From Carcharhinus amblyrhynchos (Eukaryota): 64,000 nt of DNA. Both the position numbers and the translations under genes were made by a program. Below are positions 4,914 through 51,366 of the stretch, in pieces (the first letter of the stretch is position 1; each line of letters starts with the position of its first letter). The notes under the pieces are model-generated. The model ran no database searches and had not been told where the DNA came from. It was given only the letters and a program-made list of their open reading frames with translations. The DNA lies in contig OZ336885.1 of the NCBI GenBank assembly GCA_965287045.1, positions 64,294,001-64,358,000 on the forward strand, in the 5' to 3' direction.

Positions 4914-4943
4914 CTAAGATCTTTCTTAGAAACGCTAAATCAG
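4914..4943 (-). CDS. Micro-exon (30 nt, phase 1-1) of unidentified micro-exon gene: (A)DLAFLRKIL
   Basis: ttttttttttacatacccttcatccag|...ttag|gtatgc. Only the phase-1 frame is open. Confidence 0.6.
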
Positions 4944-6899
4944 CTGGATGAAGGGTATGTAAAAAAAAAAGCAATCAGATCGGCATTTATTGTTTCACAA
5001 GTGTCGTCAGGTTAAACATTGTCAACTGCTGAATTGTGCCAATGCAGCAACATCTTACTAGTTATTAAAATCAGTCTTTCTGCCACTAGATTCAAGTGTG
5101 TTTCGACGCACTGGATCAGAAAGCATGTTAACATATTCGAGATATTGCGAAGGAGTGTGAAACCTGCGAAGCTGTGTTCCAAATTATTGCTTTTTCATTC
5201 AATGCGTGATTTGTTCGCCCCATACTATGCAATTTCTAAAGGCAGGATTTTGTTTGTGTATCTTGAAAATCTATATACGTCTGTAGCTCGTGTTTTCTAC
5301 CTTCTGAATCTACACAATATGTCGAATTATGCAAGGCAAAACATTCGCTAGATAGATTATTTGTTTCAGTAATCAAAGGACGGACATATACGCAGAATGC
5401 ATGAGAGCAATAGGGTCATCGTGTTCTTGTCATTGAAGATTTGCATGGAGGGTCAACGTTGACGCCAATTATTTTGCCGCAATGATTTGAGTTCAACGGC
5501 CAAGTTGCGGAACAGTTTCTTGAAGCCACTTGATTTTGGTAGCTATGGTTATATCACTAATCAGCAATGGATGCAACAGAATAAAAGGTGTCTAATCTAA
5601 CTACTGGTTGCGTGTTCTCACTCAATCTGTTGATATTCAACATTATTTGAGCATCACTGCAAGAACAGATGAATATTACCATTACCAGTCGCGGCTGGGA
5701 ATGTGGTCGTGAGCTGTGTTATTGAAGGGATGCATAACCCGTCGTCTAAATTGAGCAAACAGTACCACCATAATTCACTTTCCTTCTGCTTAGCAGTGGC
5801 AATAGTGAATTTGGATTTTTTTTTCAAAGAAACATTATGAGTTATTGAAATGCATCCTACAGATTGTAGCAATTGCTTGAACTGCACTTGGTTGATTTGC
5901 TGTTCACCGATGAACTGTTCCGTATTGTGGAATTTCGAGTATTTTTTATTTTATTGGAGCTACAATAATCCAGGCAGCAAAACAAATATATTTCGACCAT
6001 CTATTGTTTTCTTTGTCTTGCACGTGGCACATAATATTTGGGGCATGAATTTTTGAGATGGATGCCATATATTTCCAAACGCAAGCCCTATACTTGACAC
6101 ATTGCGTACATGTCGCGATTCAATTTATAATAAGCAATAACCAAAAAAAAACTATTTAAAGTTGATAAAAAGGCGATAGAAATGTTGTAGGATGATAAGC
6201 AGCAAATGGATGGCATATCAAAGCTGCCTAGCAAATGAAGCAGCAAATGAACCTCATTACATACATGCTACCTGTACTGCCTGGAGACCGAATTTCAATT
6301 TCCAGGTATGCCCCGTCCTACAGTTTCCCCACTTTCCTGAATTCGACACAGCCATTATTCTTATGCGTCATATTGAGCATGCTGGTGGGGAGGGTGATAT
6401 CTTCCTTTGAGTCATGCTGTCTTTTGATTTGCAAGTTTGCAAGTTTGCTTCAGTCATCACAGCCTATGTACGCAACTGAATATTGTTTTTTTTACATTTC
6501 TGCAATCTTTCCTGCACAGAATAAAGGATAAAAAGAAATAGAATTCATCTTCGAGGTCGCACTCATTGGAGAGTTCCTATCATCCGTGGTCACAAGTTTG
6601 AACTGCGACTTAGTTCTGTGAAAATATTTCACAGGCAGAGTAAACATTTAATTTCCTGTCACATAAGACTTTGAATATGAAGTCCAGAATTGACTATTTT
6701 TTTTGCTGATGGCATCATGCGTGTTATTGCCCTTCCTCATTAAATCGGGAGCAACATTTTAGCGAAATAGGGCATGATGTGCTTTGCCAGCAACGAATAG
6801 CCATCTAACATGTGATTAAAGCGGCATAATCCTATTTCCTTGTAACTAGCATGTAACAGAGTGTAGCATTAGATTTATTTTTCTCATCTGAAGATTATG

Positions 6900-7880
6900 A
6901 CAATCTGTGTTCCACAGGGATCGATACAGGGACCTTTGTTGTTCGTGCATATAAATGATTTGGCGAAAATGTAGCTGGTCTGATGTGTAAGTTCGCAGAC
7001 ACACAACAATTGTTGGAGTTGTGAATAGCGAAGAGGATTGTCAGAGGACATAGCAAGAAATATAAGCCAGTTGGAAACATGGGCGGAGAAATGGCAGATG
7101 GAGTTTAATTCTGGCAAGTATGAGATAATGTAATTTGGAAGGTCCAGAGTACGTAGGAATTAAACAGTAAATGGTAGAAACCTTCGGAGTATTAACAGGC
7201 AGAGAGATCTGTGTGAACATGGCCAAAGATCACTGAAAGTGGCAACACTGTTAAATATGGAGGTCTAGAAAGCATACAGTGATCGGGGAATTGAATAAAA
7301 CTATCGGCACGTCACGCTGTAGCTGGATGGAAACTTTGGCCATGTGCAATTCTGCTCGACACCCTCCCAGAAAAATATGCTTTGGATGGATAAGGTATGA
7401 AGAGATTTACCAAGATGGTTCCAGTCAGAAGGGCAATTGATATTCGGATAGGTTGGATAAAATCGGTTTCCTCTCACTGGAGAGATGGAAATTAAGGGAT
7501 TATCCACCGATGCCTGCAAGATTCTGGGCGGCAATGGACAGCCAGATGCTCCTCCCTCGGGCAGACAGAAAAAAAAAACAAGGACTAGGGGACGTTGCAT
7601 AAAGATGAGACGGGAAAAGTTTAGGGATGCCTGAGGCAAAGTTTTCAAAACAGACCGTGGCGAATATCTAGAAATTGCTGCCTGGAGACGTGTTGGGAGT
7701 ACTTACCATAGCGACATTTAAGGGGCAACTAGACAAATGCACGAATCGCATGGGGACGGCAAAAGACGGAATCCGGAAGTACATGCGGTTTTATCTTAGG
7801 TAGGCATCATGATCGGAGCAGGTTTGGACGGATGAAGCGTCTGTTCCAATGCTAGGCTTTTCTTTGTTCTTTGTTCTTTG
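6900..7880 (+). mobile_element. CR1 LINE 3' portion (RT C-terminus plus tail), degenerate
   Basis: VPQGS..GP.LF..YINDL and KFAD-like coding remnants; ends in a ttctttgttctttgttct tail. Confidence 0.85.
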
Positions 7881-9339
7881 CACCTTGCCCTTATCTATGC
7901 GCTCTCTAACCATTCAGAAATGACGTTATAAACATCCAGAAACTGTTGTCAGATTTTCGGAGATTCTGGCATACGATACCAGCATGTTTCAAAATTCGGC
8001 GTATGATTGTAAACCCGGGGATGACATTAATGTGGAGGAGGCGCAGCCATTATCCTTCTGAATGGCGGTGCATGCTCGAAAGGCTCACTCGGTAGCTCAT
8101 ATTCCAAGCTTGAATGCTACGACGTTCCTGTGAATAAAACATTTCTGCAATAATATCGAGTGTGTCATTTGTGCCTTCAAATTGCCTTGTCTTGTTCAAT
8201 TTAAAACTCATGGAACGAGCAACCGCCGTTGATGTGTATTCATCATTTGTTTTGAATTCTCACCGTCACGATGCTTTTGAGAACTGCCTTCTGGAATGTA
8301 AGCACATTTGTCTCAAATATTTCTGTTTAAAGCAGAAGTCTCCAACATTCAATCATTAATGGGAAATAATCATGTGGTGTTCCACAAACATATATGTGTA
8401 AAGCGCATGGACAAAAATTATGCTTTTTGTTTTGCATTCCGTGGAATTTCCAGACAACCTTTTGAACATGCGGAAACTGACTCGTGATTCGTTAGATATG
8501 AACGTGAAGAAGCGTTTGCGCAACAATAGAGCAATTATTTACCCGTAAAACTTCCAATCTTCATATGTTAATTTGTACGAGTCATAATTAATTATGCACA
8601 ATTCTATTGGAACACATTTGTTTAACTAGCGTTATCCAACACTTGATGTAAATTGATGATGCGTATTTTTCACGAGGTAGAACAGTTGTTTGCCTATTCT
8701 AAACGAATACTTTGAGTATACCATGCAAGGAAGGGCCGTTCACCCTGTCCAAACGCCACACGTTCGTCTGTGCTCTGTCACTTAAATGCTTAACTGTAAC
8801 ATTTCATTCTATACCATCGTATAGTTTATGATCTTGTCAATCAAAGTATTGTGTCGATTAACCCCTTAGGACTGGAGCCCTGAATTGTCACTTTTTTTTT
8901 GCGGGATCCTTACATATTCCACTTATTTTACTTGGGATGTATTTGCAAAGCTCACATATCTGTGGCAACAGGCAGTTTCATTCTAACTGTAAACATTCTA
9001 ACAGTTTTCACCTAAACTAACATTTGTAACAGTCATGGTCTTGTCTACATGAACAGTTTATATTTATTTGTATTTCAAATTCATCAAGAATTTGCTTTAC
9101 TTCCTTTGCTTTTTTTCATATTCACACATTGCTGCCATCGTAATATCAAATCGATTCTGAAGCGTCTCGAAAATATAATGGTTGTGGTTGGATCATGGTA
9201 GTTGGATCTGCACCCAATATCTTGATAGTAGTATCTTGAAAAAAAAACTCTACAACACTATGCGTTCTAATACAGTTCTCTGGAAATACAACTCTGCTGT
9301 TTTATTCACCAGGTGGTGTTGACGGCATTGGAGTGGGGG

Positions 9340-9490
9340 TAGGCACAGTTAGTATCTCATAACAAAAGGTTAACGTTCAACAGATTTATTTGGCAGCACA
9401 AGCGTTCGGAGCGTTGCCCCTTCATCAGGCGACTCACCTGATAAAAGGACAACTCTCCGAAAGTTCTTGCTACTAAATAAACTTATTTGA
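9340..9490. mobile_element. Inverted pair of Penelope-derived hammerhead-bearing elements
   Basis: The - copy reads ctgatgaaggggcaacgctccgaacgcttgtg and the + copy reads ctgataaaaggacaactctccgaaagttc. They diverge from a centre near 9432. Confidence 0.75.
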
Positions 9491-9929
9491 TTTATTCACT
9501 AATTATCATTTTCTTATAATTTACATATGTATTATTTTCTGAATTCTGATTGACTATGACGTTTTGCAGCATTATGTCACGTGTTTGTCGACAGTATATT
9601 AACTAACCTCACTTTTCGGCGTGTTTAAATATTCATTCTCGATGGCTTTTGAAAGTGATTGTAAACTGTACTTGTTCCTTAATAGTTTATTTGGCACATG
9701 TTCAAGGAGAACTCTTCAAGTTTGATCGAGGAGTATTGTACTTCTGGAAGCCGTATTAGGATTTTTTTTTTAAATCTGTGCTGCATGTTATTCAAATATC
9801 TCCTTCAGCAAGAATCCAAATATTTTCCTGACGCAAATTCAAAGACACATTTGCATTGTTATATTAGCCTTTTCAACCTTCAGTTGCCCTGCATTTTTTT
9901 CTAAACAATTATTTGACATCTCAACAAAT

Positions 9930-10000
9930 AAAGAATTATTATATAATATAAGGATAATAAGGATTAATAATAAGGATTATTATATTATATAATAATTACA
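9930..10000. repeat. AT-rich short tandem repeat (taataagga-like)
   Basis: aataaggataataaggattaataataaggattattatattatataataat. Confidence 0.6.
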
Positions 10001-10538
10001 AATAACACCACTGTCTTCTGCCTGTTGTAATGCGAATGTTCGGGAGAATGATGGCAAGTGTGTGCTTGAGGGGTGGTTAGGGAGAAAACAGTGAATCAAT
10101 ATTCCGGAGGTCCGTTTTTTATTTTATTTTCGATACTTTTGAACTGATTTATTTATGCTAGTTCACTGATCACCCTTTTGGTCCTGTCAATGTAAGTTGC
10201 AGCAAAATTGAGAACAAGACCATTGATAGCTTGCATGGAATGGAAATGTGTTGTGTTCCGCTGTATCCATCAGTTCATTGTTATGTAGAGAAGTGGCTCT
10301 GCCCAGATGGAATCGTTGACTTTCTTAAGTTAGGTGTGAATCATCATCTGTTGTAGATCAGACATGGAAGACAGTTCCAATGAAGAAGTTCAAGAGAGAA
10401 TAAACCAATACTAGTTTATCCATTACATCAAACAGTTTTTGAAACAACATACACCACTGTCTGAATTATAAGGCACTTGCATCTTAGTTGATATTTTGCA
10501 AAAATCGTGTACAGCATGCTACATGTTTTTGTGCTCAC

Positions 10539-10565
10539 CTTCATCTTTCTTGTTATCCTTCTCAT
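10539..10565 (-). CDS. Micro-exon (27 nt, phase 1-1): (D)EKDNKKDE
   Basis: accgacag|atgagaaggataacaagaaagatgaag|gtgagc. Strong donor, weak polypyrimidine tract. Confidence 0.6.
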
Positions 10566-10949
10566 CTGTCGGTGTTATATTTGAATCAAGCATCAAATAT
10601 CTTCATGTTCTGGCTCAAGCTGTAAAGATACCTGGCTCATTACATTCAACGTGATTGGGAATTTTATTCGGCGTGTTTATCACAGTAAGATGCCAACTTT
10701 AACACCCTCATTGTTCATGGAACAATACTAAATTTATTTGCCTGATTGACAGCGTTGCATAAACATATATTACATATGACAACTCAGGTCAGATAGTGCG
10801 ATTTAGTTTTCTACAGTCTCTTTCAAACTGAATATGTGCCAAATTTCTACAATTTGGCTTGTAATTAACAATTTCTCAGGCAAGGAAAAAAAAAATGCCG
10901 ACTGAACTGTCAATTTGTCGGTTTGCAGAACCCTTCGGGGCAATAACAT

Positions 10950-11600
10950 ATAAAGTGATGTGGGGTTCCATACATTTCCCCAAATCTGTCAACACAGGTG
11001 CCCAAATTTATTAAGAAGGCATGTGACGTGATCGTTTTTATCAGCTGGAGTACTGAGTGCAAGGGTTGGAAAATTGTGTTCCACCTTTAACGATATTTAG
11101 GCCGCACTTAGAAATTCTGTGCAGTTCTGGCCACCACCATAAAAAAACTTTGGAAAGAAGGTTCACCAGAATATTGCAAGGTCTCGAGGGTGTTGGTTAT
11201 GAGAAGACGTTGAATATATTAGGAAGTTCGTTTTGTAAAACTGCGAGGCATAGAATGGGCGAATGGTCAAAAAGCTTTATTCAAAGTCTGCAAGTGTCAA
11301 TTACACGGGGGCATGATTTCAAGGCGAGAGGGGCAAGTTTAAAAAAAAGTTGTGTGGGGAGTTTTTGTTTTCACACAGAGAATGTTAGGAGCCTGGAAGT
11401 CGCTTCCATAGGAGCTACTGGAAGCAGGCGCATTCGCACCATTTAAGTAATATGTGGTTGGCAAGATGAAAATTAAGGGAATCGAGGGACACGGACAGTG
11501 TCAGGACAGATGATTATTTTTATTCGGTTAGTAGAGACATCATCAGCAGCACACACTTGGAGGGCCGAATGGCCTGTTCGTTCGCAGTTCAAATATTTCC
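10950..11600 (+). mobile_element. CR1 LINE 3' end, degenerate
   Basis: RPHLE, RRFTRILQGLEGVGYE and TRGHDFK motifs in ORF 11057-11446; gggccgaatggcctgtt 3' UTR. Confidence 0.85.
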
Positions 11601-12704
11601 TCTTTCTCATTGATTAAATAAATTAAGATATCACGTTTGTAGCAAGATGAATGATTCAAAATACTCCGATGCCAAAAGTTGTCTTAATTTCAATGGCAGC
11701 TGTGGAGTGCATTTTGCGTGTAGAAGATCCGATCAATATGCAACATAATTTCGCCGTGCTACAACAAAATATCCCCATTCATGAAATACACTTTATAAAA
11801 TATATTGTTGTATTTATTATCATATTTCCAAAAGAGAACATCTTGACAGTTCTTCCTCAAAGTAGACAGATTTTTTTTTTCAAAGCAGCAGATTCACACA
11901 CACTAAAAAAGCACTGTAAACAAAAACTGATTGGTCCTTGCAAGTTGAACATGAACTTTTACACACGAAGTGGAGGAATGAGAGAACGAATTGTTCCTCA
12001 CTGTTGTGTAACTGATGATTGCATACAGATTGTGCAGGGAGAGATGGAAATAGCCATCGTGGATTTAGAACAGTGCACTTCACGTTAACAGTTAGAAAAA
12101 TAAAATAAAATAAATCAATGTCTTGTGAAAGCAAGCAGTGAAGAGATGATTTCGGTGTTTTCTGGTCTTGGTGCTTAATGGGCGATTTGAATGATCATAC
12201 CTTTCCAATGCGTTCAGGATGACCTGGTAATATGTCATCACAACATTAAATGTGTGTTGTGTAGACTGATAGATGCGTGTAGGAACAAGCTGTCACGCCA
12301 TGGAGAGACAGAATTAAGGCAAAATGTGATAGGCAATAAAGCATATAAGTGTAATTACATCGCATAACGTTTGCCTTTGTGAAACTGGATTACATCAGTT
12401 CCCACGACGTTAGATTCGATTGTTGCAGCATCATGGAAAGTTTTAATTCTCGAGTGTTGTGTAAGTGGAAAAGAAAATCCGGCAGCCTCCATAATTATGT
12501 CAACTTAACTGATTCTGAATAAATCATCTGTGGCAATTAGTTTTGCACACTTTTCTTCTAACTGAGAAGGGCGCAGTAACGTTGGCAATGTGTTTAGGAG
12601 AACATGACTCTGAAATTGATATTATTTTGAACAGAAACTAAAATTACTTATTTTTGTATAGCTGATAATAATTGGATAATAATTGGACGTTTTTGGTCCC
12701 ATAC

Positions 12705-12731
12705 CTCTTGTGGAGTCAGGCACCTTTGCGC
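12705..12731 (-). CDS. Micro-exon (27 nt, phase 1-1): (G)AKVPDSTR
   Basis: gattctattctacgatag|gcgcaaaggtgcctgactccacaagag|gtatgg. Confidence 0.65.
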
Positions 12732-14371
12732 CTATCGTAGAATAGAATCATAATTGACCATATGGTTTACAAAATTGATTATAGATCTAATATAACAGTG
12801 CTGCGTTTCAGATTAATTCAGAACATAAGTCAACAGTCGCAGATTTTCACATTTGGCGCGGCGACTCTAAGGAAATGTTTCACCATGCTTTGTCTGAGTT
12901 TTATGAAGTATGTGCTTGCTTCGATTCAAATAGCCAATCTCGCCTTGGACAGGAAAAAAAAAGTCTCCAAGACCTTAAGTAGTCTCGAACGTGTCAAAAA
13001 GTGGATATTCATGTGGCGTGTTTGGGAAGAATCCCAGCCAATCATCACCCGGGAAACAAAAAGATGATGTTTTGGAACAATCAAAATTGGGCTCTCGAAA
13101 CACGTGGCTTTTCGTCTGTTCAACCTTATCGTTTGATACTATTTTGGCAGGACTGCAGACAAAATGAATAAACTTCTGAAAGATTAAACAAACAAAGAGA
13201 AACGTGTTTTATGTTTAATCAAGTGATCATTTACTATGGATTGCTGTTAACACTAAAAAAAATGAAATAGATGCTGAGTGAAAAACTATTAATTGCCAAA
13301 AAATGAAGCAGGCATTGGAGATGCATATCATCCATAAGAATGATTGATCTTTTCAAGGAAAAAGACGCTATCATGAGCAGTTGATAGTGTCAAATGGCAA
13401 TTGCGTCGCGCAGTTATGCTAAATGAGCGAACTTTTATAACATATTTGTGTTTTAACAGTGGAATATATTTTCTTGAAAAAAAAAAGCTGTCTTCCTCTT
13501 TTCCACTCATGATTTTTGCAGGTTGTTTAACTCTTGATTAATATAACATATATTGTTATCAGCATATTGCATTTCTTTTCTGTTAGGATGCGTTTCCACA
13601 AGTAGAGGTTGTTGTCGATATTCTTCTGATTTGGCCATTTGCTTTGACTCTCCTCGTATGTCCGATTGGAACTAGATGCATAGATATACAGAGGGTTATT
13701 TTAACTGTATTTATTTCTCTATTTGTCTGACAATTGTTAATATTTTTTGTGATGCTTCAATGCTCATTGGTTTTGACTGTCCTTCAGATCGCGGTTTAGC
13801 TTTTCATCAGTATTGTAGTTTTTTTTTTGTTTGGCCTGTCATTTAGGTTTTGTTCGTTATTCCAACAAAAGTAAAGCGTAATGTTATCACTTCTCGCATC
13901 ACGTTTGTTTTCGAACACGTCTGCCACTGAATTTCGAATTGCCACTCAATCTGCATCTCAGGAAAGGGGGTACACAGTTTGTTGCATTCCAAATTTACAT
14001 TTCCTCTTACGTAATCTCCCTATCACCATGTTAATTGCAGTACTTTAAAGTCATGCTTCATCGTCTTTAGTTGTTTCCTCCTTTTGAAATCGGATATTTA
14101 GACTGCTGTTTTTCTTCGGTTAATGGGGTCCGTTTATTTTTAATGCCAGCATTTTAAAATTATGTCTTTGGCGCGCCATGTTCATGCATCAAATGCTAAA
14201 AACAAACGGATAATTCACTATAGGTCCGTGAGTATGTTTAAACCCAAAGTTCAGGTATGCATGAGTGTAATCTCCATGCAGGTTCCATTCAAACAGTGCA
14301 TTCTATTGTAGATATATTGTAGCATTTGAGACTCTTCCAAATCACTTAGCATACGTACTGACACCCAAACA

Positions 14372-15025
14372 TGAGCGGGAACTCTCCGATCCCGAGGCGT
14401 TGTTTAGTTAACACGTCAGGCAAGGCGAATTGTGTGTGCGCTGATTTGCGAGATTTGTATATGGTTCCTGATACAGGGGAACATCTCCGATCACCTGACA
14501 TCGGTGCGGTTGGGACCATTTTAGTCGTATTTCAATGATGTTTAAATGTTAATTTCGGGTATGGGGATGACGGCTCCTGCCCCACACCCAGGCATTAAAA
14601 TTTCAATCCAGATTGGCTCAGACGCTCTGCCCACTTTCGGGGAATTGCAGGAGACAATGCAAGAAGATTTGACTAATTTGATATAGCGCCATGCAATGTC
14701 AGTGTAGTTAAAAAAAAAAGCTTCAGGTTTTAACTCGCCCACTTTCGTGAGTCTGTTCTGCCAGTGGAGGAAGCAAGCCGTGCAATAGTGATTATGACCG
14801 GCATTTTATTCAATCGTGAATCGGAGAGGAGGAAAAGGTTCTGCTTCAAGAGGTTAATTTCTGATACTATTGTCTCAATGTGGTTCCGTTCTCATATTTT
14901 GGTCAACAAGAGTTTTTCAGAGTCCATAAGGCGTCGTGTATTCTCCTTGTGTCCAGCTTCTAGGCCAACACAGTTTTTCATTCCCACCCCCCGCCCCCCT
15001 TGCTGGAATTCGTGAAAAGCGAGTA
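14372..15025. mobile_element. Degenerate Harbinger-type non-autonomous element(s)/MITE
   Basis: GC/CpG-richer island starting gagcgggaactctcc, resembling the GGGC.GGA.TT-type termini of Harbinger elements. The right end is unclear. Confidence 0.3.
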
Positions 15026-15859
15026 TCTTGATTGAACATGCCGAACTTCAATAAAGCTCAAACACAAGACTAACTATGGCAGTTTTACATCTCCGCAGAT
15101 CATGGTTGGCGCAGGGAGGCATATGTGCGGTCGGCCCTGGTTTAAAGATCAGCATGTTTAGCATTAACTTAAAGTTCCAGTGTGTTTGTGCACACACGAC
15201 TGGAACAACTGTTATATTTGACACAATACCGAAAAACATCAGGGATGGCCACTTGAAGTCGAATTTTCGAACGGTCGCAGAAACAACTCCACATCACGTT
15301 ACCACCCTTTCCCAGGGAAAATAACTCAACCAATTCAGTGCTCCTTCAGGTGCTCAGGTTGCGGAAGTCCCAAACATTGATTACAGAAAATGAAAATTGC
15401 TCCTTCAAAGCGATTGTGCCACACACTCTCCTCGGATTACAAATCAAAAGAAAAGTGTGAAGTTTTTTTTTTGCAAACTGTCTTAACAGAGTAAACTAAA
15501 TTATGAAATACCTTCGAAACTGGAATTAATAATAGCTGTGTTTTAATATTCAGCCATGGCAGTAAAGAACAAAGCTGGAAAAAATGTCACTAGCGATACT
15601 ATCAGTATTAGAATACTGGCATACTTTATAAAAGTCATGCATATCCTGCTTTTGAGCAACTAAAAACGTTGTTAATGTTGAGGAGATTTCCTTTTGGACA
15701 CATCGAAATAACTGGCCAACAATGAAAGGAGAATCGAAGGTCTTGCTGAGTAATGTGAATTACCTACGCAGTGTGAAAGAAGTTTGATTTGAGTAAACAT
15801 GGAGCATAGAAATCCGACACTGCAATAGTAGTCATTTTTCCCCCATCGAATGTGCAACG

Positions 15860-16125
15860 ACCATAATTCCTGCCATCGCATGTATTCCTACAATCCTCTA
15901 AATCCCATGTGCATCGAACATTTTCCTGCAATCCCGTGCATTTATCCTGTTCGAAGCCCTTGTAACGAATGGGTAATTTAGTACAACATTGAACTCTGAG
16001 GACCATGGGAAGGAACCACACACGAGGGAGAGCTGCATCACGACAGTGAGCCGAGGCCTGATTCGAATGCTTGATTCTGTCGCTGTGAGTGAGCATTGCT
16101 AATCAGTGTGCCGCTATGACATCCC
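15860..16125 (-). mobile_element. HE1-type SINE, degenerate
   Basis: acagtgagccgaggcctgattcgaa...gctgtgagtgagcattgctaatcagtgtgccgc is the reverse complement of the SINE tRNA head. Confidence 0.65.
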
Positions 16126-16427: not shown

Positions 16428-16454
16428 CTTCTTTGGTATCAGTGTCTTTTGCCT
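16428..16454 (-). CDS. Micro-exon (27 nt, phase 1-1): (E)AKDTDTKE
   Basis: cttcttcccttgtgtaacag|aggcaaaagacactgataccaaagaag|gtaatg. Confidence 0.7.
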
Positions 16455-39825: not shown

Positions 39826-40814
39826 GTTGTCACTGAATACAACATGTATTAACACCTTTCATCATTCTGCTGATGAATGGTTGTCAACTCTGTGACTGTA
39901 ACGGCGCAGATTACAGTATGCTGCGTTTTTCTTATGGGCAACATAGTTTTTTTGGTTTTTATAATGTATGTTGTTTTTTAATTAAATATTACGTTTCTAT
40001 GATCAGACAAACTATGACACATAGGTTTTCTTTCCGAATAATTATGGGAGGGACTCAGTGACGATCATTGGTGATTAGTGTAAGTTCAAGAACCCATTTT
40101 ACTTCGTTAATAGTCCTTTATGGATTGAAGTTTATTGCATGTTCATCATTATTCTTTTTGCATTGCAGCGATGAACTCCTCCAGTTAATGATACAAAGAT
40201 TTTTTTTTCGTTTTACACAAAGTGCCAGATTTGCTGAGCAAATGTAATAGGTTGGCTAAGAAACGTTCAACTGTATCCATCGAATAGTTTTTTTGTGAAA
40301 TATCCTCCTTTATTGTGGTCTCAAGATGTCAGTACCACGTTTACACGAATTATAGTTGTTATTCCAGTCATGATTTCCACGAAAATATTTTGCTCTCAGT
40401 GTCACACTCGGCCGTTTGGTAAGGCAAACATGAGTTGTATGGTCTGCGACAAAGTTGAATATCGTTGTTGATCATTCATCAGTTTAACTCAGTCCTTGTT
40501 ATTTCCTGAACGCCTCGTATGCACGTGTTACGTTTTTGTTTACAGTAAGATTTCGTATCCACACGACTTTTATTAAGTTCATTGCTTCAAAAATTGTCAC
40601 CGCTGCATGCAATTGCGATCTCGTGACAAATGAGGACCGGATAACATTACTTTCGCCTTTTTTACTTGCTCCCTCGACAATGGCAGCACATACACACAGG
40701 CACTGGTAGCTTTCCAAATCGTTAAATCAGTCAGCAGATTCGTCACCTAGTCAGATTTGTCAAGTTACATAGATGCCACCCAAGCAAATAGCATATTTTC
40801 TGTATTTGCTACAA

Positions 40815-41130
40815 AAGAACACAAGAACATAAGAAATAGGAGGAGGAGTAGGCCACCTAGCCCTTCGAGCCTGCCCAGCCATTCAATAAGATCATGGCTG
40901 ATCTGAAGTGGCTCAGTTCCACTTTCCCGCTTTCTCCCCATAACCCTTAATTTCCTTGCCTACCAAAACCCTATCTACCCGTGTCTTAAATATATTTAGC
41001 GAGGTAGCCTCCACCACATCAACGAGCAGAGAATTCCAGAGATTCACCACCCTTTGAGTGAATAAGTTCCTCCTCAACTCCGTTCTAATCAGTTTCCCCC
41101 TTATTTTGAGGCCGTGCCCTCTAGTCCTAA
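40815..41130 (-). mobile_element. CR1 LINE 3' end
   Basis: ORF 40913-41164 reads TRGHGLKIRG...FTQRVVNLWNSL; aagaacataagaaatagg tail. Confidence 0.9.
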
Positions 41131-41265
41131 ACGTAGAGTTGGCTGAACGTAGAGTTCCTTGCAAATGAGAAAATCTCAGATGCTAATTCAACCGATTTCA
41201 CTCCATTAAGGGTTATCAGAATGTTGCATGGATAGCCAATGTTGTCGAGATCTGAAGAGTTATTT

Positions 41266-41421
41266 TCACTGGAATTCTTCCTCCTCGCCAGCTACGGAAT
41301 CGGGGCAGTGGGCGGATGGTGGAGTGGGGTCGGGGGAATGCTGGGAGAGGGAAACGAAAATGACTGTTTACCTCGGGCGGGAGTTTCCGGAATCCTTCGT
41401 GTGACGTTACAATTCCAGCCC
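41266..41421. mobile_element. Short Harbinger-type MITE
   Basis: Terminal inverted repeat ctggaatt...aattccagccc around a GC-rich core. Confidence 0.45.
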
Positions 41422-41435
41422 GATTTCGTTGATAT

Positions 41436-41905
41436 TACATAAGAACATAAGAAATAGGAGCAGGAGTAGGCCATCTAGCCCTTCGAGCCTGCCCCACCAT
41501 TCAATAAGATTATGGCTGATCTGATGTGGATCAGTTCCACTTTCCCACTTTCTCCCCATAACCCTTAGTTCCCCTGTCTGTGAAAAACCTATCTACCCGC
41601 AACTTAAATACATTTATCGACTTAAATACACTTAGCGAGGTAGCCTCCACCACCTCAACGGGCAGAGAATTCCATAGATTCACCACCCTCAGAGTGAAGA
41701 AGTTCCTCCTCAACTCTGATCGAAACTGTACCCCCCGCCCCCCCCCCCCCCCCCCCCCCCCCCGGATTATATTGAGGCTGGACCCTCTAGTCCTGCTATC
41801 CTTTCTAAGCGGGAAGAATCTCTCTACCTCCACCCTATCCATCCCTTTCATTTTCTTATACGTCTCCATAAGATCCCCCCTCATCCCTCTAAAGTCCAAC
41901 GAATT
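41436..41905 (-). mobile_element. CR1 LINE 3' end with expanded G tract
   Basis: ORF 41531-41917 reads RGDLMETYK...RNFFTLRVVNLWNSLP; C run on + strand at about 41731-41763. Confidence 0.92.
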
Positions 41906-42141
41906 TACACTGGGCACTGGGAGTGTACTAATAGAATTGTACCCTGACTATAATCAGCGCCTGACCCAGGGAAAGCGGAAGGTCACAGGGGATGATCAGG
42001 AAGGCAAGAACATATGGTGTGTTGTATCAAAGATTTGCCTTTCGAGAAGTTAAGGACCTTTGTCATGCTGGCTGAAGGAAAATTGTGCTTACATTTGTTT
42101 TGAACACTTTTTTTTCTTCATCAATGACATTGATTCTTAAT

Positions 42142-42460
42142 GGGTTAGTGCGGTAGCACAGTGGTTGGCACTGCTGCCTCACAGCGCCAGGGACCTGGGT
42201 TCGATTCCCGGCTTGGGTCACTGTCTGTGTGGAGTTTGCACATTCTCCCCGCGTCTGTGTGGGTTTCTCCGGGTGCTCTGGTTTCTTCCCACGCTCCAAA
42301 GATGTGCTGGTTAGGTTGATTGGCCATGGAAAATTACCCCTTGGTGACAAGGGGACGAGCAGGTTAAATAAGTGGTGTTATGAGGATAGGACTTGGGTGG
42401 GGTTGTGGTCATTGCAGACACGATGGGCCAAATGGCCTCTATCCGCACAGTAGGGGTTCT
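42142..42460 (+). mobile_element. HE1-type tRNA-derived SINE (V-SINE), near intact
   Basis: Pol III A box TAGCACAGTGG (42154-42164) and B box GGTTCGATTCC (42198-42208). Central gtggagtttgcacattctccccgcgtctg domain and CR1-derived tail gatgggccaaatggcct. Confidence 0.92.
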
Positions 42461-42699
42461 ATTTTCCATGACTGAAGATACTCTTTTCGCATCTTCCATT
42501 GATGGTATTCTCCAAATAATATTCCTGACCTTGGCAGGATCATGATTTAACCCAATTCCATCCACACTATATACACATCCAGTGGGACATAGGAATGGTA
42601 AAACGATATAAAATAAGGCCCTGGCTTCTTGGTTGTTTCCTCCCCAGGGGCACAAAATACCACAGTAATAGTTCTGTTCCCAGCCTAGACAAAATTAGC

Positions 42700-43250
42700 T
42701 TTCTTTATATTCTCCCACAGGATGTTTGCATCACTAGCTGGACCTGTGTTTGATGCCCCTCCCCACTTGTCCTTGTGAAGGTGGTGGTGTGCTGCTCTGA
42801 ACCCCGACATGGTTCCATATGATTCCATACACGTACACCCGTAGCGCTGTTAGGCAGTGAGTTACAAGATTCTGATCCAGCTAACTCACCACTGATTTCT
42901 CGGTTATTCCTGGCGCCTTCCTCAGGTCTACGCGCTGTTTTATGCCCCGTAACTAAACCTTCCACCTTCCAAACTCATAACCACTACTATCTCGAAGGAC
43001 AAGAGCAGCAGATACCTAAGAACACCACCACTTGGTAGATCACCTCCAAGCCATTCTCTGACTTTGGAATGTTGTGCTGTGCCGAAATCCTGAAATTCCC
43101 TCCCAAACATCGCTGTGGGTGTCCCTACACCTTGGGGACTGCAGCGGTTCAAGAGGGTAGCTTACCATTTCCTTCTCAAGGGGCAGTTAGGGATGGGCAT
43201 TGAATGCTAACCCAGCCAGCAATGTCCACATCCCATAAATTAATTTAAAA
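42700..43250. mobile_element. Second LINE family (CR1/L2-clade) 3' end, with an inverted partial copy at about 42700-42880
   Basis: The + strand has ggactgcagcggttcaag...cttctcaaggggcagttagggatgggca. The upstream ccttgtgaaggtggtggtg...ggcagtgagttacaagatt is its reverse complement. Same family as 50740-51095. Confidence 0.7.
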
Positions 43251-43949
43251 GCCAAATGACTCAGGCCAATTGAGCGTGCAATACATCTCGTTCGAATCTG
43301 ACCACGGATTCAGAAATGTAATTATTTCACACGTCTATATTTTGTTACGATCCCTCAAATCCACCCCTCCCCCCTCCCGAAATCCACATGTTTCGATGAG
43401 CATCTGTAGTCCCATAGCACACAACGCTACAGACCAAGTGCTGGAAAATGGGACTAGAATAGGTGGGTGCTTGAAGGCGAGTGCAGACATGATGGGCTGA
43501 AGGGCTTCCCTCTGTGCTGCAAAACTCTGTGACTCATTTGTTTGGTGCGTTCTGCTGAACGGGTTTTGAGCAAACTTACCTCAGTCGCCTCAAGAGGATG
43601 AGCGTGCCAGAAAACTTTGTCCTGTCATAGTTGTCTCCTCTCCTTTTGCCCTCATTAACCTCTGTCCTCTTTCTCTCTCCTATTTCAACCATTGGAGAGT
43701 GGATTTATATTTTCTAAACCCTGTGGATCCCAGTCCGCAGTTTGAAGCCAGTGTGGGGAGCAAAAGCTTAAAAGGGCCTGTAATTAATTCCAAACTCTTT
43801 AACAGTTCTGGAACACAACAAATGCTGGAAGGCATTTCTGCCTCCGAAGATCCTTAATACAACTTTGATCAAGAGCCCGTCCCAAGCCGGATCCCGGTTA
43901 GAGGTGGAGGCAACTGGTGTGTGCAAGGCAGACTGAAAGAAAGCGATGC

Positions 43950-44545
43950 CCAACAAAGAACAAGCTAAAGCACAGCACAGGAACAGACCCCTCGGCCTCC
44001 CAAGCTTCCGGTGACAGTGATGCCCGAACCAAACAAAAAAAAATCCCTCTACCCCTATTCAGTCCACATCCCTCCACTCCCCCCGCCCCCCCAATCACGC
44101 ACCCATCCAAATGCTGCCAATGTGCTCGCCTCCACATCCCACCACCGCCTCCTCCGCCTCCCCACCACCCCCCCCCCCCCCCCCCACCGCCGGCAGCGCC
44201 CTCCAGGCAGCCACTCTCTGCGTGAAAATCTTCCCCCACACACCTCCCCCAAACCCCTCCCCTCTCTCTCAACTTGAACCTGTGCCCCCCCCCCCCCCAC
44301 CCCCATCCCGCAACAGACACCTCCACCCCGGGAAAAAAGCCTCCATCCATCCACCCTCTCTATGTCTCTCATCATTTTGCAGACCAGGTCTCCCCTCAGC
44401 CTCCGTCCCTCCAGCGAAAATAACCCAGTTTATTCAATTTCTCCTCACAGCCAACACCCTCGAGACCAGCCCCAGAGTCACCCGCCGCAGATCCCCTGGC
44501 CTCCGGCCTTGCCCGCACCGCGCCCGCCGCCACAGGAACACAAAG
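43950..44545 (-). mobile_element. CR1 LINE 3' end, G-hypermutated
   Basis: GLEGVGCEEKLNKLG, FFPGVEVS..GHRFK and VEGCGLN recognisable amid G runs; aaagaacaag tail near 43955. Confidence 0.85.
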
Positions 44546-46649
44546 GACCAAAATGGCATCCGGTTGCGGCATGCGTGGTATAAATTTAGTGTATCTGCGT
44601 CTTGGCTCTTGAGATAAGTGACGGGCCTGTAGTAGGAGGAGAGAGGTTGCAGCTAGGTGGCAAAGCTGATGAATACTGGGCACAGCACCGGGACGATAGC
44701 TGAAGCAGTCCCTACTGTAAAGCTTGCAATCAGAAAGGCTCAAAGATGGCATTATGCAAATCCAAATGGCCTGAAGCTGAAGTGGAATTTATTATCCTCG
44801 CTCCATGGTGTTTTTGGCAGTAGGAGGGAATTTAGGAATATTGCATTACAGTTAGGAATCGACTTCAGCTTGCACAGAATTTTTTCACAGGATGAATGTT
44901 TGTTCTAGCTCTGCAGTTTGAAATGACACGCTCGTATGACAATCTGTCTCCGTGTTTTACACAGTGTCAATCAACGAGTAGGTTGCTGTTCCACTTCGTC
45001 ATTGGCAGTCTTTAAGATTGCTGTCAGAATGTTACCCAAATGTGCTCAATCACTCCTTGCATGTCCAATTAGAGATGATATCCGAACGGACAGTGACATA
45101 ACATGGAATTTAGATTGAGCATGTTCGCAAAATAAAAAACAAATTCACGTTTAAAAGAGCTGGCTTTTTCGCTGCGTCACTGAAGGGTGCAGGTAAGTTA
45201 CACAAACAGTCAGTTTGTTGAAAATTCATGTTGACTGTTCTAAACAACACATATTGAGAGAAAAAAGTCTATAAAGCGAACGATTTGAAAAAAAAATCAA
45301 CTGTGCAGATCACAACGCTGGAGTAAATAATCGTCAACCTAATAAAAAAAAACATACTTTAGCTGAAAGGCATTCCTACTCTGTAACATAAAATGATTCA
45401 ACCTATTTTACAATGAACCTTACCATACATTTGAAAACTTTAAAAGCGCATTCTGCACACGTGAGATGAGCTTCATCACTCAGTATTTCCAGTACCAACT
45501 TCGACAGAATGTTTTTTTTCATGTACGTATGTATCAGTACCGAAAACATCTATCATCCCCAAGAATGTTCACTCCAAACAAGATCACGAACGTGCACTTC
45601 TCTCATTCGAGTATGTAGAGTCGGGGTTGGGGTGGAGTGGAATGGGGCAAATATTCTTGCTTCCAAAATCACATGGTACAGCGTATTCTGCGATTGTAAC
45701 GCTGATAGTATCAAGCAATATCGACCAATCATATCCCACAGCCTTGCCCTACTTTTTTTGGAGATCAGTGAGGTATCAGTAACACAGAGTTTGTTCGATT
45801 TCAGAGGCCAGCATCCGCATCATGACATGTTGGAATTCATGCAAGTCGTAAACTGGGATGCACAATGGAAGAGTATTGTGTGTTCCTTCCCTGAAGATAT
45901 CCTTGTGTTGTCTGAATTATCACAAGTAGAACACAGGGATGAATCCCTTCCCACAGTTATAATCGCGTGTACATTTCTACATTCATTTGAGAACGTCGGG
46001 TCACAGGGTACTTCTTCACAACAACTCAATTCATACGCAGGAAAACAACCAAACGGTGTTCCAATAGTCCACTTCGATTTTCCAGCGCATCAATGCATGT
46101 GTTCAATTCGCAAACAGGAGTGCCTATCGTGGCAGAATTTGAGGTCCTATCACTGGAACATTCTGTCAGTAGTCTCAGCTAAATTTGAACCGTTCACTTC
46201 CAATACATTCCATTCATTCTTTGAGGCAAAACATCGATGTATGAAGCGTTGTTTCCGATCAGTTGTTGTACAATAGAATTTTGGATCTGTTCCTCAGATC
46301 ATATAAATTATTTTTCGTGAAAAACTATCATTTCCGTTTTCAGAATGTACGACTCTGTTCCAAAGCGTGAATCGTAATCTTTCTCGTTAGATTACAACAT
46401 GCAAAATAATCTGCCAATTAAGAGATCAGTGGAGACCTGTCCAGCACTAAGTGACAGACAATTCGTGGCTTTGACGTTATTCCAGTTGGCAGCAACTGGA
46501 CATGTTAAGTGGAATAAGGTTGCCTTTGAAACAGAAACAATGTCCAGAATTGTTGCTTGGAAAATAAAAACTGGGAGTATCCGTGGAACATAATGCAAGT
46601 ATATTTAACGAGGCGAGTCCTATGTTGCTCTGACTGCACAATGAGTGTT

Positions 46650-49640
46650 GCTTAAATGCGAGGAGTGTTTTTGGAACTGGATGAAAACAGAGAGTTAGGT
46701 GACACAGGCAGCAGAGTCTACAAGGAAGAGTGCTGATTGGTAAGTAAGTGTTGCCCTTGATTCTTTGAAACTGCCAGTAATTTCGAATAAAAAAAAATCT
46801 TCAAAATGACAGCACAGTAGGGCCCTGATTTGATTGACTAAAAGGGAGCTGTGCTAAATTTGAAAAAAAAAACATTGAAATGAATTGTGAGACATTGTGT
46901 TGAGGCTGCGGTAATAATTATAAGAATACTTTTGTTAAAAAAAATGAAAGCCCAAATTAAAATCTAATTAAATAATATAGAGATGGAAGGTCAGGTGATG
47001 TGTTGTTCATGTATGATGTGGGAGCTGGTGGATACAGCTCCCGCATCAAGGGGGCTGTACTCGTTGGGGTTTAGAAGGCTGAGGGGAGATCATATAGAGA
47101 CATATAAGGTAATGACGTGCTAGACAGGGGAGAGGCAGAGAGATGATTTCCACTTCGAAAGGAAACAAGAACTTGTGGTCAAAGCCTCAAACTAAGGTAG
47201 AGTCAATTTAGAACAGAGTTGAGGAGGAACTTCTCTCAGAAGGCACTGAACCTTTGGAATTCTCTGCTCATTGAAGCAGTGGAGGCTACCTCGTTAAATA
47301 TGTTTAAGTCACAAATAGATAGATTTCTGATCAATATGGGAATTAAGGTTTATGGGGAGCGGGCGGATAAGTGGAACTATCAGATCAGCCATGACCTCTT
47401 GGAATGGTAGGTCAGGTTTGATGGGCTAGATAACCTCATGCTGATTCTATTTCTTATGTCCTTTTTTTGTTGAGCTCATTGTAGTTCCCAGTGAGCATGT
47501 CTGTAATAAGTGTTGGTTGCTTGAAAAACTCCGGTTTTGGGTGTATGAGCTGGATTCTGAGCTCCGTGTGCTTCAACACATTAGGGACGGGAAGGGATAT
47601 TTGGTCACTTTGTTCCAGGAATCCTTTGTACCCCTTAGATTAAATACCTTGAATTTGGCCAGTGGACAAGGGCATGAGAGCACGTCTGTGAGAGAGGCTG
47701 ATGGAGGGATCCAGGAGATAGCGTTGCAGGAGCCTTATTCCCTGAATTTATCCAACAGGTTCGACATTCTTGTTCCTTGTGTAGACAGAAATGTGTACCG
47801 CAAGGAAGGTGAGCCAACTGACAATGACACCCTGGTACAGCCTGCTTCAAATGGGGATAGAAAAAAAAAGAAAGGTTGTCATAATTGGGTTTGTATAGTT
47901 AGGGACACTGAGACTATTCTCTTTGACCAGAAACTTGAAGGCGGTGTTGCCTGCCTAATGATCGGGTTCGGGATATCTCATCTGGGCTGAGTGGAAACTT
48001 GGAGTGGGAGGGCAAAAGTCCAGTTGTGGTGGTCCAAGTAGGTATCAATGACATAAGCACAGCAAGTACAATAGGAACAATGGTTCAGCTACAGGACCAT
48101 GAAGTTCTTGGACCAAAATAGAAAAGCAGAACCAAAAGAGTAACAATCTCTGGATTATTACTTGAGCCACGAGCGAATTGCCACAGTGCCAATAAGATTA
48201 AGGACTAAACGCGTGGCTCAAAGATTGGTATGAGAGGGAAAGGTTTGAATTCATAGGGCATTGGCAAAAGCACTGGGGAAGAGGGGACCAGTCCCATTGA
48301 GGCGGTCTTCATTTGAATCGAGCTGGGATCATAGTCCTGGCAAATCGTGTAACTGTAGGTAGGGTTTTAAACTACGCAATCGGGGCCGGAAGGGAGAGGA
48401 GTACGGAAGTGGGGGTGGGGGGTGGGGTTCAGTTATATGGACGATTATAAATTCAAAAATAAAGGAGAGGATGGATGAGAAGATTAATGAAGACCAGGGC
48501 TCAGGAGGGTTCATCAATGTTTCCAGAGCACGTAACAGAACAGAGTACAAAGGATGGCAGAAACCTAAACTCAGGCGGAGAAATAAATGTGAAAAGTATG
48601 GGAAGGAAGGTAGTCAATGCAGGATTGAATGTATTGTACCTAAATTCAGACAGTATATGGAACAAGTTAAACGAGCTTGTTGTGCACACTGTAATTGGAT
48701 GGTACAACGTTGGGGGGCATCACAGAGACATGGCTGCAAGAGTATCAGGGCTGGGATCTAAATATCCAAGGATATGTATCCTATCAGAAGACAGACAGAT
48801 GGACAATGGGTGTGGAGTTGCACTGTTCGTAAGGAATGAAGTTAAATCCATCGTAAGAAGTGATATTTGACATTTGATCAGAAGGCAAAAAAAAAATCTG
48901 TGGAGAAAGTAAAGGAATCGCAAAGAACCTGATAAGAGTTAGGTACAGGCCCCCTACCAGTCGTCAAGATGTGGGGCAAAAAATAAGTCAGGAGATTCAA
49001 AGGGTATGTATATAAAAAAAGGCAATACTACAATAATCAAGGGAGACTTCAATATGCAGGTAGACTGGGAAAATCAGATATGTAGTGGATCTCAAGAGAA
49101 GGAATTTGTGGAATTACTAAATTTTTTGGAGTAACTTGTGACAAAACATACTCGGGAATAAGCATTTCTGGATTTGATGATGTTTAATGATGCAGGATTG
49201 ATTTGGGAATTTAAGGTGAACAAACATTTAGATAGCAGCGACTACAATATGGTAGAATTTATCCTGCAGTTTGAGAGACGGAAGCTGGAATCAGATGGAA
49301 CGGTATTAAAATATAATAAATGTACCAACAAAGACGTGAGGGTGGAGACTTGATTGGAAAGGGACCGTAGCAGAGAAAGCAGTAGAAAAACAATGGCAGG
49401 AGTTATTGGAAGTTAATTAGGAGGCGCAACAGTAATTCATCCCAAAGAGGAGGAAACATGCTCAGGGGAGGATGAGACATTCATGGCTGACGAGGTTATC
49501 AAGGACAATATAAAAGCAAACGAAAAAGCATACAAAGTGGCAAGGATTAGTGGGAAGCCAGAGCATTGGGAAACATTTAAAAACAGCAGAGAACAACTAA
49601 AAAACACAGTAAGACTGGGAGAAGATAAAACTTTTTAACG
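46650..49640 (+). mobile_element. CR1 LINE 5' part: 5' UTR, ORF1 (Zn-finger/leucine zipper/esterase) and ORF2 endonuclease
   Basis: MEGQVMCCSCMMWELVD...HVCNKCWLLEKLR...ELDSEL, LSNRFDIL, VVVQVGINDI and GLHLNRAG. ORF2 has LNVLYLN.DSIWNK and GDFNMQVDWE. Confidence 0.88.
47035..47465 (+). mobile_element. CR1 3' fragment nested in CR1 ORF1
   Basis: ORF 47219-47410 reads RRNFSQKALNLWNSL; ttcttatgtc tail. It splits the ORF1 CxxC...CxxC finger. Confidence 0.85.
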
Positions 49641-49649
49641 GAAATTTAC

Positions 49650-50030
49650 ATGATACTGCGAGGGCCAGATTGAGTGGGCCTGGAGAGGATGTTTCCACTG
49701 GTAGAGAGAGAGAAAAATAAGCTGGAACCAAAAGGCACAACCTCAGGTTAAAGGGACAATCCTTTAAAACAGAGATGTGGAGCAATTTCTTCAGCCAGAG
49801 AGTTTTGAATCTGTGGAACTCGTTGCCGCAGAACGCTATCGACGCCAAGTCATGAAGTGTCTTTAAGACGGAGATCGATAGATTATTGATTTGTAAGAGG
49901 GGCAGCTTTTATAGAGAAAGGGCAGTAAAATGGGAGCGATAAAAAAAAGTCAACCATCGTTGAACGGTGGAGCAGACTTGATGGGCCGAGTGGCCTAATT
50001 CTGCTCCTGAGTCTCATGATCTTATGGTCT
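49650..50030 (+). mobile_element. CR1 3' end
   Basis: ttcttcagccagagagttttgaatctgtggaactc...gatgggccgagtggcctaattctgctcct. Confidence 0.8.
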
Positions 50031-50739
50031 TTGTAGCACTGAGCATTTAATTTTTCCGTGCAAGTTTTAATTTAATTGCGAGAGATTGTTTTTGGTGATT
50101 TGGGGAAAGCTAAGATTAAATTTCTTACTGTAATCCTCCAGTCTCTGTATATGTCTTTGTATTTCTATATTTTTAACAAAAAAGAAACAAGTACATACAT
50201 TATTGTTTCACAACACAGACGCATTAAAAAATGTTTCTCACTGCACATGATAAGTAGAGAAAAACAATCCTAAATATAATCATGAATTAGTCACATATGT
50301 TTGCGAAGTAAACAGTTAATTCAAACTGATATAGTCATAATTCTGACTGCACGGATTCAAATGAAAAATGTATTTCATGCTGTCTCTTAGCAAACGGAAG
50401 TTATTATACATGACGAACAATCGTCGTTTTGTGCTGCCATCTGCGAGGTTAAATTTAGGTTGAAATCTTTACTTTTTTGACAATAATTTCAAGAATATGG
50501 GGTGATGTTAGATTTATATTTGAAGAACAGTTGAATAAGTTTTTGTTCCAGCAGACTCACTTGTTCAACGTAGTTTGGTGCTTCGCCGCAGATCAAGGCA
50601 TTTTTTTCCCACCAAAAATCCAATTGTTTGTCACATTTCCTGCATTGCCTCTCCAACGATATTCTTCTGCCACATTTAACTATTTTCCTTTGTAATTCTT
50701 ATATCACGCACGACATATAAATATGAACTTATTTTGTGA

Positions 50740-51095
50740 TGCACTGCAGCAATTCACCAAACTTCCTCAGGCAACACATTTCAAACGCCAGAACATTTCT
50801 AACTCGAAGGACAGGAGCAGCACTTGCATGGAAACGCCAACAGCTGCAAGGTCATCTCCAATCTACTCCTCATCCTGATCTTCGAAATATATGGCCGTTC
50901 GTTCACAGTCACGAGGTTGAAATCCTGGAATTCCTTCCCTTGTAGCATTTCAGGTAAGCCCGCAACATGTAGAGTTGCAACAATTCGCAAAGCTAACCCA
51001 CCACCACCTTCACAAGGGCAAATTCGATTGGTCAATTGACATTAAGTTTGGGGCATCCAGCGATGCCCATTTCCCACGAATGAATAAAAATGTCC
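50740..51095 (+). mobile_element. CR1/L2-clade LINE 3' end
   Basis: Colinear with 42900-43250; ends atgaataaaaa. Confidence 0.7.
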
Positions 51096-51339
51096 ATACA
51101 TGAAATGTAGCTACTTTCTTATCAGAAAATTAATAGATATGACTGCAACTGCAGCATGAGTGACAGTCATTAGGGTCATGCTGTTCACAAAACAATCTGC
51201 AGAACAATCCAAGTTTTGTTGTCCGGTTTCTCAATTGACTCAGCAACGTAATTTCACTTATGAACACAACCCACTGATTATCGTATATGACCCTGTTATT
51301 CTGCATACACTGTTGTTCAAGACAGTAAGTTCGTGTTAC

Positions 51340-51366
51340 CTCCATCCTTCTCCTTCAACAAGCTGT
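51340..51366 (-). CDS. Micro-exon (27 nt, phase 1-1): (D)SLLKEKDG
   Basis: atttattgattacag|acagcttgttgaaggagaaggatggag|gtaaca. Confidence 0.65.

Follow-up and report, generated by a model that had tools for sequence, protein, structure and literature searches.

An array of about 1.7 Mb of phase-1 micro-exon candidates ending in a single B30.2 exon in Carcharhinus amblyrhynchos: a candidate gene for a secreted coiled-coil rod

A stretch of 64,000 nucleotides (nt) from Carcharhinus amblyrhynchos (assembly GCA_965287045.1, contig OZ336885.1, here C16, positions 64,294,001 to 64,358,000; hereafter the window) lies inside an array of very small, symmetric exon candidates on the minus strand. An earlier note, made from the letters of the window alone, had proposed an unannotated host gene built from phase-1 micro-exons, with its start and stop probably outside the window. 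This proposal was right: the window is a slice of a minus-strand array of some 1.7 Mb, which holds more than 200 phase-1 micro-exon candidates and stops at one intact exon for a B30.2 (PRY-SPRY) domain.

The exon array and its layout

We tiled 1.87 Mb of C16 (63.694-65.567 Mb) and took segment statistics from the first 1.664 Mb; signed coordinates are relative to the window. AG..GT-bounded segments of 21, 27 and 36 nt number 68, 86 and 69 on the minus strand, compared to 23, 21 and 23 on the plus strand, while other lengths yield about 16 segments each. Every one of the three length peaks has a region-wide Poisson P < 1e-20. Phase 1 is open in 64/68, 81/86 and 62/69 of these segments (207/223 in total), and phase-1 stops are not above background expectation. 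An exon model trained on 148 of the 21-, 27- and 36-nt segments returned 259 non-overlapping candidates on the minus strand versus 46 on the plus strand, from which about 213 true exons are expected. Upstream of the B30.2 exon, 258 candidates together make 2,328 residues, and roughly a dozen noisier ones extend the array to +1,133,707. From 3' to 5' the layout is as follows.

-558,263 to -557,743, minus strand: terminal B30.2/SPRY exon
-557 kb to 0, minus strand: 107 micro-exon candidates
Between the window and the cassettes, minus strand: mixed block
+341 to +481 kb, minus strand: nine tandem 36+27 cassettes
+507 to +971 kb, minus strand: 21-nt block, 60 of 71 candidates being 21 nt long
Reaching +1,133,707, minus strand: 5'-most block, sparse, of 27, 30 and 36 nt
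+1,163,104 to +1,163,173, minus strand: candidate signal-peptide exon

Within the window, all 10 segments listed in the earlier note lie on the minus strand at the coordinates named, with AG before and GT after, in the lengths and with the peptides given there. Phase 1 is the sole frame open in all of them, stops occurring in 0/10 segments in phase 1, 5/10 in phase 0 and 7/10 in phase 2. Self-BLAST of the 1.664 Mb, a local test and not a genome-wide mask, placed none of the 10 in a repeat. For the window alone, the excess of 27-nt matches over controls is clear at a strict splice score (6 on the minus strand, 0 on the plus strand, a shuffle mean of 0.69, and 0/100 shuffles reaching 6). It is marginal at two looser scores (7 versus 2, with 3/100 shuffles; 11 versus 8, with 6/100 shuffles); the splice scores rest on generic tables. 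The array-trained model passes 7/10 of the listed segments, a partly circular figure as some belong to its seed, and also passes 3 plus-strand sites within the window. The segment at 4914 scores low in this model and those at 12705 and 26687 fall below its listing floor; these three are the least secure of the ten. The model adds overlooked candidates at 63944 (36 nt) and 34370 (27 nt), and possibly at 8264 (27 nt) and 63534 (33 nt). Taken together, the segments in the window are very probably real exons of a coiled-coil gene that ends in B30.2.

1..64000, minus strand: internal slice of the array, whole window
63944..63979, minus strand: 36-nt phase-1 micro-exon candidate, Leu at positions 5 and 9, overlooked earlier (trained model)
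63534..63566, minus strand: weak 33-nt candidate (trained model)
51340..51366, minus strand: 27-nt phase-1 micro-exon (AG/GT ends and trained model)
38723..38758, minus strand: 36-nt phase-1 micro-exon, contains Pro and two adjacent Cys, likely a helix break (AG/GT ends and trained model)
36176..36202, minus strand: 27-nt phase-1 micro-exon (AG/GT ends and trained model)
34370..34396, minus strand: 27-nt phase-1 micro-exon candidate, overlooked earlier (trained model)
27617..27640, minus strand: 24-nt phase-1 micro-exon (AG/GT ends and trained model)
26810..26836, minus strand: 27-nt phase-1 micro-exon (AG/GT ends and trained model)
26687..26698, minus strand: weak 12-nt candidate (AG/GT ends; below the floor of the trained model)
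16428..16454, minus strand: 27-nt phase-1 micro-exon, polar, no heptad hydrophobics (AG/GT ends and trained model)
12705..12731, minus strand: moderate 27-nt candidate, polar and containing Pro (accepted by the generic splice score, not by the trained model)
10539..10565, minus strand: 27-nt phase-1 micro-exon rich in charged residues, with a strong donor and a weak acceptor (AG/GT ends and trained model)
8264..8290, minus strand: moderate 27-nt candidate, overlooked earlier (trained model)
4914..4943, minus strand: moderate 30-nt candidate, hydrophobic (AG/GT ends, low trained-model score)

The long open reading frames (ORFs) of the window (17751-24422, 29548-30134, 62165-62851 and others) are by appearance mostly reverse-transcriptase fragments of long interspersed nuclear elements (LINEs), and N stretches occupy 36766-36960 and 38248-38394.

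The wider array has several further features. The cassettes (+341,000 to +481,000; C16:64.63-64.78 Mb) are nine recent tandem copies of a 12-22 kb unit, 91-94% identical around the 27-nt exon, and are likely to be polymorphic in copy number; older, diverged copies shrink to 18 nt. The 27-nt exon at -525,015 has two inverted copies on the plus strand, at -522,639 and -522,430, which are 92-96% identical over about 200 bases, splice sites included. An array intron harbors a low-copy, retrovirus-like element in the same orientation (C16 ~64,251,700-64,259,000; -42,300 to -35,000), with four long open frames of 574, 318, 851 and 635 codons and, by eye, dUTPase-like and envelope-signal-like segments. 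A run of Ser/Thr/Pro-rich exon candidates of 27-30 nt at +127,984 to +141,108 is possibly a mucin-like hinge, which would suit an extracellular protein.

The terminal exon, the heptad register and the relatives

The terminal exon has a phase-1 acceptor, a SPRY domain, a stop and an AATAAA signal, on the strand and in the phase of the array. It matches PF00622 with 50.7 bits against a cut-off of 26.3 (E 2.4e-13) and sits at the exact 3' end, where the micro-exons cease; the 1.87 Mb contain no other B30.2 exon. The B30.2 domain of BTN3A1 is the best solved match (profile E 1.7e-30); profile positions 2-158 align to it, and 2-156 to the B30.2 domain of TRIM21. PF13765, the PRY subdomain, is unmatched in this exon and weak in two relatives, and the region aligns to BTN3A1. 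An AlphaFold model of the exon (predicted local distance difference test, pLDDT, 42) was too poor for use. Searches of the 1.87 Mb with 379 proteins (tblastn) and with profiles of the BTN ectodomain and the TRIM N-terminus found no immunoglobulin (Ig), RING or B-box exon, though a very divergent Ig exon could be missed; the remaining tblastn matches were repeat fragments inside mis-annotated models. No convincing transmembrane exon was seen among the long symmetric exons of the region, a class that may not take in the first exons. C-type lectin, fibrinogen, SRCR, TNF and C1q were also considered as terminal domains and rejected, as only B30.2 was convincing in a motif scan.

What do the micro-exons spell? 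Hydrophobic residues occupy positions 2 and 5 in 21-nt exons, 2, 5, 9 and 12 in 36-nt exons, and 4 and 7 in 27-nt exons. In 44 adjacent 36+27 pairs they fall at 2, 5, 9, 12, 16 and 19, an unbroken three-heptad pattern with a spectral peak at period 3.5. Neighboring 36-36 exons are depleted in all three blocks tested (P 0.007, 0.03 and 0.0002). Cys recurs at position 5, in 20/74 of the 21-nt and 17/71 of the 36-nt exons. The window is less regular, with its Pro and Cys-Cys exon and four polar exons near the 3' end. The charged, low-complexity product that the window had suggested does not hold for the array in general, which is predicted to encode a heptad coiled coil ending in B30.2, the window being a polar, irregular stretch. 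Such a stretch would form a polar hinge between more regular segments of a rod, which would explain its triadin-like look.

The earlier idea that symmetric exons could be skipped combinatorially needs a restriction. Skipping always keeps the frame, and isoform models of relatives differ by blocks of 9 or 6 residues. Exons of 36 and 27 nt alternate, and it takes one of each to fill three heptads, so that losing one of them alone would break the register; only 21-nt exons and 36+27 pairs can be skipped with the register kept.

C16 carries six related intact B30.2 exons, at 60.45, 61.08, 63.07, 63.15, 63.74 and 66.44 Mb. The five besides the exon described here are 0.08-2.7 Mb apart and belong to the same clade; among them, the array was sampled for the 66.44-Mb gene. 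This paralogue stands head-to-head with our gene, and the two B30.2 domains are only 58% identical. Out of sample, 17 stretches of 8 kb (65.54-66.40 Mb; 17 of 20 stretches taken were counted, none of them used in training) gave 29 exons on the plus strand and 0 on the minus strand. Its exons are collinear with those of our array (Spearman -0.64, P 0.003) for 19/29 exons, the test being confined to 27-, 36- or 42-nt exons with a BLOSUM match of at least 15 and dropping 10 rows. This collinearity is the best independent sign of selection on the exons. A repeat-poor stretch of 12 kb between the two genes resembled a promoter common to both but, by eye, reads in part as a retroelement remnant.

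Profile searches recovered models with a single B30.2 domain from S. canicula, Narcine, Leucoraja, Cetorhinus and Callorhinchus, together with unnamed assembly proteins. The named models are listed here (aa, amino acids).

Leucoraja XP_055510696: named 'TRIM69-like', 295 aa
Callorhinchus XP_042192744: named 'nuclear-pore anchor-like', 1697 aa
Callorhinchus XP_042191566-8: named 'TRIM58'
S. canicula XP_038668997 and XP_038672306-10: named 'TRIM39-like'
Narcine XP_069775384-90 and Cetorhinus XP_078422387: named 'A33-like'

In a B30.2 tree, 15 rows (the six C16 exons and relatives) occupy their own side of a 100/100 branch versus 25 BTN, TRIM and type II rows; the tree is unrooted (midpoint only) and the 25 outside rows were hand-picked from several hundred matches. 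All named members of the clade are from cartilaginous fishes. The relatives consist of a coiled coil and SPRY only, RING, B-box and Ig being absent in 7/7 family models scanned. They share with our gene this clade and composition; all are unstudied predictions, and our gene, with a predicted rod of about 2,000-2,300 residues, would exceed every one of these models in length. RefSeq isoform models differ by internal blocks, 9 residues long in three species and 6 in one, each starting with D or A, as skipping of phase-1 micro-exons would give. RefSeq isoform models of this kind are usually based on RNA reads. XP_038668997 carries a repeat-derived stretch near its start. Look-alikes among sequence clusters are generic B30.2 proteins, apart from one 1579-aa cluster with coiled coil and SPRY at 0.84, which we regard as a lead only. 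No description of the family was found in a literature search that covered little subscription literature and no supplements.

One secreted rod, or something else?

On balance we favor the reading that the array and its terminal exon form one gene for a secreted, long coiled-coil rod with a C-terminal B30.2 head. That the whole span is a single transcription unit appears likely to us. For secretion of the product, taken separately, we lean only slightly towards yes. A unique exon with an ATG, 23 signal-like codons and a phase-1 donor is a candidate first exon; it lies 29 kb past the last micro-exon candidate to score well. Starting there, the gene would measure 1,721,436 bases. The paralogue has a unique 120-nt phase-1 exon, otherwise unmatched in the genome, with a hydrophobic and then acidic opening that resembles the tail of a signal peptide. 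Signal-like ends were seen in 2/7 distinct family models examined, XP_055510696 of Leucoraja and XP_042192744 of Callorhinchus, where the most hydrophobic 11-mer sits at residues 3-4 and no 19-mer lies above 1.6. Both share a 93/92 subclade with our gene. Signal-like ATGs at -40,369 and at C16:65,484,399 were rejected as first exons, the former belonging to the retrovirus-like element and the latter to a LINE. Short-word tblastn with the N-termini of the relatives returned noise only.

Several observations weigh against this reading. The exon at +1,163,173 is not significant and so a candidate only: on either strand, chance alone supplies about 8 exons of this kind in 1.66 Mb. It resembles neither the 120-nt exon of the paralogue nor the N-termini of the relatives. 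The first exon of the paralogue was not found, its best-looking candidate being a LINE. Models from Narcine, S. canicula (460 aa) and Callorhinchus (230 aa) lack a hydrophobic start, and the N-terminus of model P0274 could be an artefact of ab initio prediction. B30.2 domains ordinarily reside in the cytosol. The 5'-most block (+978k to +1,134k) is noisier than the rest and has no counterpart detected in the paralogue, and the joining of the exons is itself deduced from their sequence. A further point comes from DNA of a related organism, a single run of unspliced contigs about 97% alike, with no joints at exons, which says nothing on expression. Between these contigs and our B30.2 exon there are 4 differences in 518 positions and no indel, the flanks carrying 12 differences and 2 indels in 683. 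All 4 change residues (3 codons; codon effects read by hand), and there is therefore no sign of purifying selection; these small numbers would be compatible with relaxed or diversifying selection. Among 40 of 69 difference rows none falls in 26672-26901, which spans two exons, and we give this no weight.

Could the same rod remain inside the cell? It would then be a scaffold or sensor of TRIM type without RING, its coiled coil dimerising and keeping the B30.2 heads apart. This would agree with the intracellular B30.2 domains of TRIM, pyrin and BTN proteins, the closest solved structures, with the three models that lack a hydrophobic N-terminus, and with a signal exon that is only a candidate. 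We hold it to be unlikely, as the two full-looking models nearest our gene start signal-like, the paralogue has its signal-tail-like exon, and Cys recurs at core positions. A membrane anchor seems less probable again, whether as a type II receptor with a giant stalk and an external B30.2 domain or as a butyrophilin- or BG-like protein whose Ig and transmembrane exons were overlooked. The former layout has precedents: models from bowfin and basal teleosts (P0034, P0294, P0028 and P0107; Amia, Albula and Paramormyrops) consist of a cytoplasmic tail, a transmembrane segment, a stalk and an outward, C-terminal B30.2 domain. An uncleaved signal anchor is conceivable here, and chicken BG tails are made of 21-nt heptad exons, as the excerpted text of PMC5938342 describes. 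Arguing against an anchor are the lack of any Ig match and of a convincing transmembrane exon in the searches described above, the absence of PF22705 matches on C16 60-67 Mb while many occur elsewhere, and the position of type II and BTN B30.2 domains outside the clade of our gene. The four type II models carry Tyr motifs in two tails, belong to a different B30.2 clade and are mostly misnamed TRIM39, A33 or nuclear factor 7.

The array might instead not be one unit: internal promoters may give several shorter transcripts, or duplicated blocks may have decayed in part, the exons of the window being rarely or never joined to B30.2. The relatives' models of mostly 175-460 aa, the recent tandem and inverted exon copies, the retrovirus-like element and the extreme span all speak for this. 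We think it improbable in view of the single terminal domain exon, the phase-1 stops at background level and the exon order retained in a paralogue with so divergent a B30.2 domain. Finally, a triadin-like low-complexity gene, or chance AG..GT matches, would account for the K/E/D-rich peptides of the window and for its marginal statistics at loose thresholds; the region-wide length peaks contradict chance, and PF05279 has matches on C8 and C7 and a LINE-like chance match on C28 and none on C16, which leaves this explanation scarcely credible.

If the product is indeed a secreted rod, its 2,000-2,300 residues would extend some 300 nm if continuous. The chains could assemble into parallel coiled-coil oligomers, in which Cys at core positions might cross-link them, and the rod would hold two or more B30.2 heads at a set distance, permitting avid binding of an extracellular target. 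Its function would probably be defence because of the relatives of the B30.2 head. The rod may have grown by duplication of units that leave the register unchanged (21 nt; 36+27 nt), whose splicing may tune its length. More tentatively still, and with doubt prevailing, the genes could represent an unrecognised cartilaginous-fish family whose secreted products serve in recognition and resemble collectins in build, a coiled-coil shaft stitched by disulfides bearing a B30.2 head; the gene described here would be an extreme member (about 1.7 Mb, 220-270 micro-exons, a shaft of about 300 nm and a reach tuned by splicing).

Spliced as we infer, this gene would be one of the largest in vertebrates, both in span and in number of exons, and almost invisible to ORF-based annotation; dystrophin spans about 2.2 Mb and titin has about 360 exons. 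Misnamed 'TRIM-like' fragments in shark, ray and chimaera databases would become one family with a clear design, here a cluster of six members. B30.2, normally a cytosolic sensor, would act outside the cell on a rod of tunable length. How exon length (21; 36+27) and heptad register limit the duplication and skipping of micro-exons can also be tested directly on this array.

Comparison with known systems

Among the gene families named in the earlier note, triadin drops out, as PF05279, the N-terminus of triadin and junctin, is unmatched on C16. The schistosome micro-exon genes (MEGs) do not fit either: a globular B30.2 exon closes the array, and the exons hold a heptad register. A schistosome MEG encodes a short secreted protein, mostly of micro-exons and with no globular domain, and its skipping has been demonstrated. 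Vespryns such as ohanin are secreted B30.2 proteins with a signal peptide and no long rod, and guinea-pig enterophilins, described as cytosolic, carry B30.2 behind many heptads; both lack RING and Ig, a putative likeness to our gene, where neither was found.

Class IV TRIM proteins (TRIM39, TRIM69, A33 and TRIM21) also have a coiled coil followed by a terminal B30.2 exon, about 30-40% identical to ours. They differ from this locus, where no RING or B-box was found in the 1.87 Mb and where the rod is micro-exonic and more than 10x longer. The nearest analogy, as had been suggested, is with butyrophilin and BG tails, which share the heptad exons and, in butyrophilin, the terminal B30.2. A heptad stretch followed by a C-terminal B30.2 domain is described for butyrophilins in the excerpted part of PMC12841164. 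Heptad exons before a terminal B30.2 are common to butyrophilins (BTN/BTNL, ERMAP) and our gene, whereas the latter has hundreds of exons instead of a few, no IgV, IgC or transmembrane exon found, and a separate B30.2 clade. Typical exons for butyrophilin IgC and for B30.2 of the TRIM type form large clusters on contigs C46, C53, C9, C41 and C73, with typical BTN IgC loci on C46, C53 and C9.

In chicken BG proteins a long coiled coil is encoded by 21-nt heptad exons, which vary in number and undergo alternative splicing (PMC5938342, in its excerpted text). The array of 21-nt heptad exons recurs here in the +507k to +971k block, and pattern matches number 13/20 here, versus 7 for a reversed control. 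BG has an IgV domain, a transmembrane segment and about 29-38 repeats, with no B30.2 mentioned in the text of PMC5938342, whereas our array includes 36+27-nt pairs as well and ends in B30.2. By analogy, the design would work as the heptad tail of a BG or butyrophilin protein does, enlarged and closed by B30.2, yet searches for Ig and for RING or B-box came back empty. It is probably neither a butyrophilin nor a TRIM protein but a variant, probably secreted, of the layout that joins heptad exons to a B30.2 head.

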